A stretch of DNA of 64,000 nucleotides from Deltaproteobacteria bacterium (GTDB lineage Bacteria > Myxococcota_A > UBA9160 > UBA4427), in contig JADJOR010000024.1 of assembly GCA_016713665.1 (NCBI GenBank), positions 342,862-406,861 of the forward strand, in the 5' to 3' direction. Below the pieces are notes generated by a model. It saw only the letters and a list, made by a program, of their open reading frames with translations, had not been told where the DNA came from and did no database searches. The translations under genes were made by a program, and so were the position numbers. Below are positions 54,888 through 55,418 of this stretch, piece after piece (the stretch's first letter is position 1; every line of letters begins with the position of its first letter).

Positions 54888-55418
54888 CCCCCCCCCCCCC
54901 CCCCCCCCCCCCACCCCCCCCCCCCCCCCCCGCCCCCCCCCCCCCCCCCCCCCCCCCCCCCCCCCCCCCCCCCCCCCCCCCCCCCCCCAAACCCCCCCCC
55001 CCCCCCCCCCCCCCCCCCCCCCCCCCCCCCCCCCCCCCCCCCCCCCCCCCCCCCCCCCCCCCGAGACCCCCCCCCCCCCCCCCCCCCAAAACACCCCCCC
55101 CCCCCCCCCCCCCCCCCCCCCCCCCCCCCCCCCCCCCCCCCCCCCCCCCCCCCCCCCCCCCCCCCCCCCCCCAACCCCCCCCCCACCCCCCCCCCCCCCC
55201 CCCCCCCCCCCCCCCCCCCCCCCCCCCCCCCCCCCCCCCCCCCCCCCCCCCCCCCGAACCCCCCCCCCCCCCCCCCCCCCCCCCCCCCCACCCCCCCCCC
55301 CCCCCCCCCCCCCCCCCCCCCCCCCCCCCCCCCCCCCCCCCCCCCCCCCCCCACCCCCCCCACCCCCCCCCCCCCCCCCCCCCCCCCCCACCCCCCCCCC
55401 CCCCCCCCCCCCCCCCCC
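54888..55418. repeat. 531-nt near-homopolymeric poly-C tract (24 non-C bases by my count); probable assembly/base-calling artefact
   Basis: Read directly. C runs are interrupted only by isolated A/G clusters at 54913, 54932, 54989-91, 55063-66, 55088-91, 55093, 55173-74, 55185, 55256-58, 55290, 55353, 55362 and 55390. Confidence 0.95.

Follow-up and report, generated by a model that had tools for sequence, protein, structure and literature searches.

A 531-nt poly-C tract in a deltaproteobacterial contig very probably bridges an IS3-family element that the assembler could not resolve

Genes and features around the tract

The window is the whole stretch of DNA that was analysed, 64,000 nucleotides (nt) long. 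Towards its right end a regulator gene is followed by a long run of almost pure C, a relic of an IS66-family element and an operon with TetR, RND pump and P450 genes. The features of this region, from left to right, are as follows.

53968 to 54579, plus strand: XRE-HTH and cupin regulator gene (Pfam HTH_3 and Cupin_2), the last real gene of the left flank.
54580 to 54886, no strand: genuine intergenic DNA that ends in …CAATCTGCAG, collinear at 99.9% identity with independent contigs L001 to L004, L006 and L011 to L020.
54887 to 55418, no strand: spurious segment, a G and 531 nt of poly-C, found where CGGGCT and about 1,218 nt of IS3-family sequence should be.
55419 to 55431, plus strand: right inverted repeat end of the IS3-family element (GTAAGGCTTGCCA), its last 13 nt, placed by comparison of occupied with empty sites.
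55432 to 55435, no strand: right copy of the target-site duplication GGCT; the left copy is lost from the window.
55461 to 56011, minus strand: IS66-family relic, made up of a terminal inverted repeat (GTAAGCAGT at 55461) and a C-terminal transposase fragment (PF13817, DDE_Tnp_IS66_C).
56307 to 62435, plus strand: operon of TetR, membrane-fusion protein (MFP), RND pump and P450 genes, assigned by Pfam and collinear at 99.9% identity with contigs L001 to L010.

The tract itself occupies 531 nt (54888 to 55418). A composition count gives 507 C (95.5%), 20 A, 4 G and no T. It begins 308 nt past the stop codon of the regulator gene (54579), and GTAAGGCTTGCC at 55419 directly abuts its right end. 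Thirteen interruptions, all of A or G and either single or in short clusters, break it into C runs of 1 to 79 nt. A sequence-only reading of this DNA had described a 531-nt stretch of about 95% C with scattered A and G interruptions, some 300 nt downstream of a regulator gene, and our counts reproduce its position and composition exactly. No other homopolymer of at least 9 nt occurs in the 64 kb. A tract that is the sole case of its kind cannot have arisen by chance. The 64-kb window contains no N bases. Open reading frames that cross the tract are meaningless: they read poly-Pro on the plus strand and, by the genetic code, poly-Gly on the minus strand. They had already been called translation artefacts from the letters, and the plus-strand frame does read poly-Pro.

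The regulator product (203 aa) has exact matches in 122 blocks of a public collection. The 307-nt intergenic region that follows its gene gave no match in Rfam and none among plasmids. To the right of the tract, the IS66 relic keeps roughly the final third of its transposase. The earlier claim of such a relic holds up, both by the PF13817 match and by DNA that is about 70% identical to IS66-family transposase genes between 55539 and 55826. The 206-aa reading frame called over it (55435 to 56055) has no Pfam match. The end of this relic would be expected to be of the GTAAGCG type and to lie about 30 nt beyond the transposase stop. The relic terminus, GTAAGCAGT… at 55461, aligns with the ISAzo19 inverted repeat GTAAGCGGT…. 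Both ISAzo19 inverted repeats (GTAAGCGGTAACTGAC…) align at this position of the window (GTAAGCAGTCG…), 42 nt right of the tract.

The locus lies in a wider region of distinct composition. GC content is about 70% up to a tRNA-Ser(GGA) gene (20099 to 20186), drops to about 60% exactly there and stays lower across 20.2 to 64 kb. Downstream of the tRNA gene are a DNA methylase reading frame (25107 to 26309, minus strand) and a large serine recombinase (26713 to 28371, minus strand). The 20.2 to 64 kb region looks like an integrated mobile element that bears genes of aromatic catabolism (Rieske oxygenase, amidohydrolase_2 and P450s) and an RND pump. The segment from 49.7 to 63 kb is found at 99.9% identity in many unrelated metagenomes, and the catabolic cluster is absent from PLSDB plasmids at 85% identity or more. 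A module of amidohydrolase and XRE-cupin regulator is duplicated at about 70% identity (39546 to 40579 and 52890 to 54309). Between the amidohydrolase and the regulator, a 100-nt fragment (53596 to 53695) resembles the N-terminal HTH region of the regulator and may be a pseudogene remnant.

Alleles of the site in independent assemblies

Contigs that carry the locus were gathered by exact-protein look-ups with two genes, TetR to the right of the tract and the regulator to its left. More than 20 were returned, from unrelated metagenome assemblies in ENA, JGI and Logan. By megablast they match the window at 99.86 to 99.96% identity and nearly without gaps; among the listed contigs, the flank alignments hold three gaps against L013, one against L018 and none elsewhere. 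The left-flank match ends at exactly 54886 in every contig that covers the left side. Of the 14 independent contigs that cover the site, with about 99.9% identity, none has the poly-C tract (0/14). The sequence-only reading had judged the tract a probable artefact, and this result supports it.

The 14 contigs fall into three groups. Six have an empty site (ERZ27299533, SRR30276817, JGI 3300056599 contig 01094, ERZ27299535, SRR29448039 and SRR30296910; class L001/L011, L004, L006, L012, L015 and L019). Here the flanks are joined directly, as …CTGCAG-CG-GGCTCACGG…, and the match to the window resumes at 55432. Three span a complete insert of 1,231 bp (SRR15882951, JGI 3300056625 and JGI 3300056599 contig 09985; class L002/L014, L003/L016 and L013), and in these the match resumes at 55417. 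The remaining five (L005, L007, L017, L018 and L020) show one junction and stop inside the insert. Both alleles occur within one sample, JGI 3300056599, where L006 is empty and L013 is occupied. The contigs show that the source population is polymorphic here: between regulator gene and IS66 relic, the site is either empty or filled by a 1,231-bp IS3-family element.

IS3-family elements are about 1.2 to 1.5 kb long, with imperfect TG…CA inverted repeats, an orfA/orfB overlap in the -1 frame and a target duplication of 3 to 5 bp. The reference copy of the insert, L002 3895 to 5125, is 1,231 bp long and has imperfect inverted repeats of 40 nt with TGGC…GCCA ends. It reads CGGGCTTGGCCGGCCC… on the side of 54886 and …GACTCGTTCC on the side of 55417. 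Its two reading frames (L002 3964 to 4230 and 4224 to 5072) lie in different frames, with AAAAAAA at 4218. OrfA (88 aa, HTH_Tnp_1) overlaps OrfB (282 aa, rve and rve_3) in the -1 frame at this slippery A7. A 4-bp duplication, GGCT, stands on both sides of the insert and is single in the empty site; the empty allele reads CTGCAGCG-GGCT-CACGG and the occupied allele CTGCAGCG-GGCT-[TGGCC…TTGCCA]-GGCT-CACGG. Length, TG…CA repeats, A7 frameshift, DDE rve domain and 4-bp duplication are thus all shared with the family. Judged by these features, the 1,231-bp insert is an IS3-family element in every defining respect. In the window, no more than 13 to 15 nt of it are left.

Over part of its length the insert DNA is about 65 to 70% identical to plasmid genes annotated 'IS3 family transposase'. 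The closest relatives of OrfB in GTDB species-representative genomes are 82% and 77% identical. The 1,231-bp element is apparently an unnamed IS. No further copy was found within the 64-kb window. Related IS3 elements in public genomes form contigs of their own, about 1.2 kb long and in one case labelled cov_1803; a multi-copy IS that has collapsed usually ends up as such an isolated contig.

The window itself can be assigned to one of the two alleles. In occupied contigs the insert ends in …CTCGTTCCGTAAGGCTTGCCA. Positions 55419 to 55431 of the window are identical to the right end of the insert in L002, L005, L007 and L014, and L003 has a 1-nt variant. Contigs L001, L004 and L006, which have the empty site, lack these 13 nt, and the empty junction is also present in L011, L012, L015 and L019. 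The window aligns with occupied alleles from 55417 onwards but with empty ones only from 55432, and so carries the end of the IS. The CC at 55417 to 55418 may likewise be derived from it. With the last 13 to 15 nt of the element and the right duplication retained, the window represents the occupied allele. The sequence-only reading had taken GTAAGGCTTGCC for an IS66-like terminus. It is instead the right end of the IS3-family element, absent from the empty alleles.

A third structural allele is seen at L012 4058 to 6346, where a 2.3-kb IS21-family element (IstA and IstB) lies inside the IS66 relic. Its 5-bp duplication falls at window positions 55563 to 55567, about 130 bp right of the IS3 site.

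The join across the tract

A tract of this kind could join two regions that no genome carries side by side. The sequence-only reading had raised such a chimera and advised that synteny across the tract not be trusted. The tract does sit at a repeat boundary, where assembly graphs tangle, and the tetranucleotide correlation between the two flanks is only 0.89. This value, which that reading had proposed to obtain, lies within the spread of 0.89 to 0.96 found among segments of the 20 to 64 kb island and does not indicate a chimera. Nine independent contigs from eight samples contradict the idea directly. All of them have Rieske, SDR, amidohydrolase and regulator genes on the left and the IS66 relic, TetR, MFP, RND and P450 on the right, in the same order and orientation and with identical junction sequence. 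The flanks adjoin directly in these contigs or have only an IS between them. A chimeric join is therefore extremely improbable. On the evidence of the compared contigs, the left and right neighbourhood is genuine; the join is sound, and the error is confined to what fills the gap.

The site is nonetheless one where assemblies break, as had been suspected from its repeat boundary. Nine independent contigs end in the IS3-family element or at the nearby IS21 site: the five that stop inside the element and four more (L008, L009, L010 and L019) at 55538 to 55575. The IS3/IS21 site is a proven assembly trap. Independent assemblies stop here and both alleles occur in one sample, features that the window shares with repeat-induced assembly breaks in general. 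Such breaks usually leave contig ends or N. Here, in contrast, there is junk filler within a correct join.

Comparison with the occupied allele shows that G and 531 nt of noisy poly-C have taken the place of the left junction, CGGGCT, and of about 1.22 kb from inside the IS. We consider the tract a technical artefact that bridges an insertion sequence which the assembler could not resolve, with a probability of about 0.9. For use of this contig, positions 54887 to 55418 should be masked and the poly-Pro and poly-Gly frames dropped. The site is best annotated as an unresolved IS3-family element of about 1.23 kb, the sequence of which is known from L002 3895 to 5125. The gene order from the regulator to the IS66 relic to the TetR-RND-P450 operon can be trusted. 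As this case shows, a junk homopolymer inside a contig need not betray a chimera; it can flag a polymorphic IS across which the join is correct.

Two other routes to the tract from local sequence were considered and rejected. A degraded read-through of the IS would leave its imprint on the 24 non-C bases. In two end-anchored registers these match the element at 7/24 and 6/24 positions, with about 5.6 expected, and the best of about 1,900 other offsets (14/24) lies outside the IS. This chance-level match indicates that the tract is foreign filler and not a faded reading of the template. The tract is also preceded by CTGCAG, a PstI site, at which dG/dC tailing might be imagined. This motif is native and present in every allele.

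Origin of the poly-C filler

The interruptions of the tract carry information on chemistry. In two-channel sequencing, no signal is called G, green only T, red only C and both A (fastp, PMC6129281). Read on the poly-G strand, the interruptions are 20 T, 4 C and no A. The complete lack of A among 24 interruptions has P = 6e-5 if the three bases are equally frequent. The one absent base is the one that needs two channel changes, so the spectrum fits two-channel Illumina data. The poly-G pattern of two-colour chemistry that had been proposed from the letters is consistent with this T20/C4/A0 spectrum. The argument is symmetric and fits a poly-C read equally well; it speaks for the chemistry and not for the strand.

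The filler would have arisen in the following way. No-signal poly-G reads or read mates from a two-channel Illumina run would appear here in reverse-complemented form, and a step of large-k de Bruijn assembly, local assembly, gap closing or polishing may then have used them to link contig ends. The two ends so linked would be those that had stopped at the IS repeat. Because no C run exceeds 79 nt, every k-mer of the tract becomes unique once k reaches 79, and a large-k assembler could lay the tract out as a linear path. The left junction is less simple. On the plus strand, real sequence is followed by G and then by poly-C, whereas a simple 3' poly-G tail would give poly-G. This orientation calls for an extra step, such as reverse-complemented dark mates, a gap-filler or a polisher. 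Random read-specific noise is normally lost at k-mer count filters, which also counts against a poly-G filler. Within the overall probability of an artefact, we regard a two-channel Illumina origin of the filler as somewhat favoured.

IMG/VR contigs served as a control and were scanned for C or G runs of at least 60 nt. The scan found 58 stretches (loci L107 to L164) with runs of 60 to 248 nt. Of the 26 contigs that were returned whole, 21 have the run no more than 13 nt from one of their ends. On the G strand the interruptions rank as T (28), C (14) and A (8), the same order as in the window. C/G tracts are a recurrent technical feature of public assemblies. The window tract shares with the poly-G artefact of two-channel instruments such as NextSeq and NovaSeq its G/C homopolymer, interruptions of one channel change, the lack of a counterpart elsewhere and these contig-end precedents. 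It differs in being internal, not terminal, and in its 531 nt, more than twice the longest IMG/VR tract (248 nt). No directly relevant account was found in the literature on assembled poly-G artefacts.

An artefact could have formed over the same IS from something other than two-channel poly-G reads. A junk low-complexity stretch in a single long-read backbone, an invention of a gap-filler or polisher, and an enzymatic homopolymer from library preparation or amplification are candidates. In their favour, the orientation of the left junction is awkward for simple poly-G tails, and the tract is longer than any in the IMG/VR short-read contigs. The size of the window contig (at least 64 kb) points the same way; the longest other listed contig that reaches the site has 69 kb and begins only a short way upstream of the regulator. 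Against these sources, the T20/C4/A0 spectrum is what two-channel optics predict, and flanks that are nearly gap-free relative to Illumina-style contigs argue against an unpolished long-read backbone. We rate such an origin as unlikely, though clearly ahead of the readings in which the tract is real or the join is false.

Homopolymers do have roles in bacteria. Contingency tracts are tens of nt long (roughly 8 to 30) and vary in length among related strains. The window tract resembles phase-variable poly-C or poly-G tracts in being an intergenic C/G homopolymer. Unlike them, it is more than ten times too long and carries A/G noise, and related contigs have CG or the IS in its place. With 531 nt here and a tract of no length in related contigs, a phase-variable contingency locus was rejected.

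More broadly, the tract could be physically real in one strain, in which about 530 nt of near-pure poly-dC would have replaced the interior of the IS3-family element. We know of no mechanism that adds 531 untemplated C. If real, the tract would be by far the longest bacterial homopolymer known, and some unknown kind of synthesis, untemplated or driven by slippage, would have to lie behind it. No other assembly of the locus contains it, its interruption spectrum looks like that of an instrument, and nothing positive speaks in its favour. The chance that it is real is accordingly minute. The tract is almost certainly technical, an artefact probably of the poly-G type at a repeat where assembly failed, and not a phase-variable tract, an IS66 boundary or a chimera.

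A few of the tracts in the IMG/VR viral contigs are internal to long contigs. For example, one of 248 nt (L160) lies in a 166-kb contig and another of 175 nt (L139/L146) in a 137-kb contig. These may be similar masked misassemblies.
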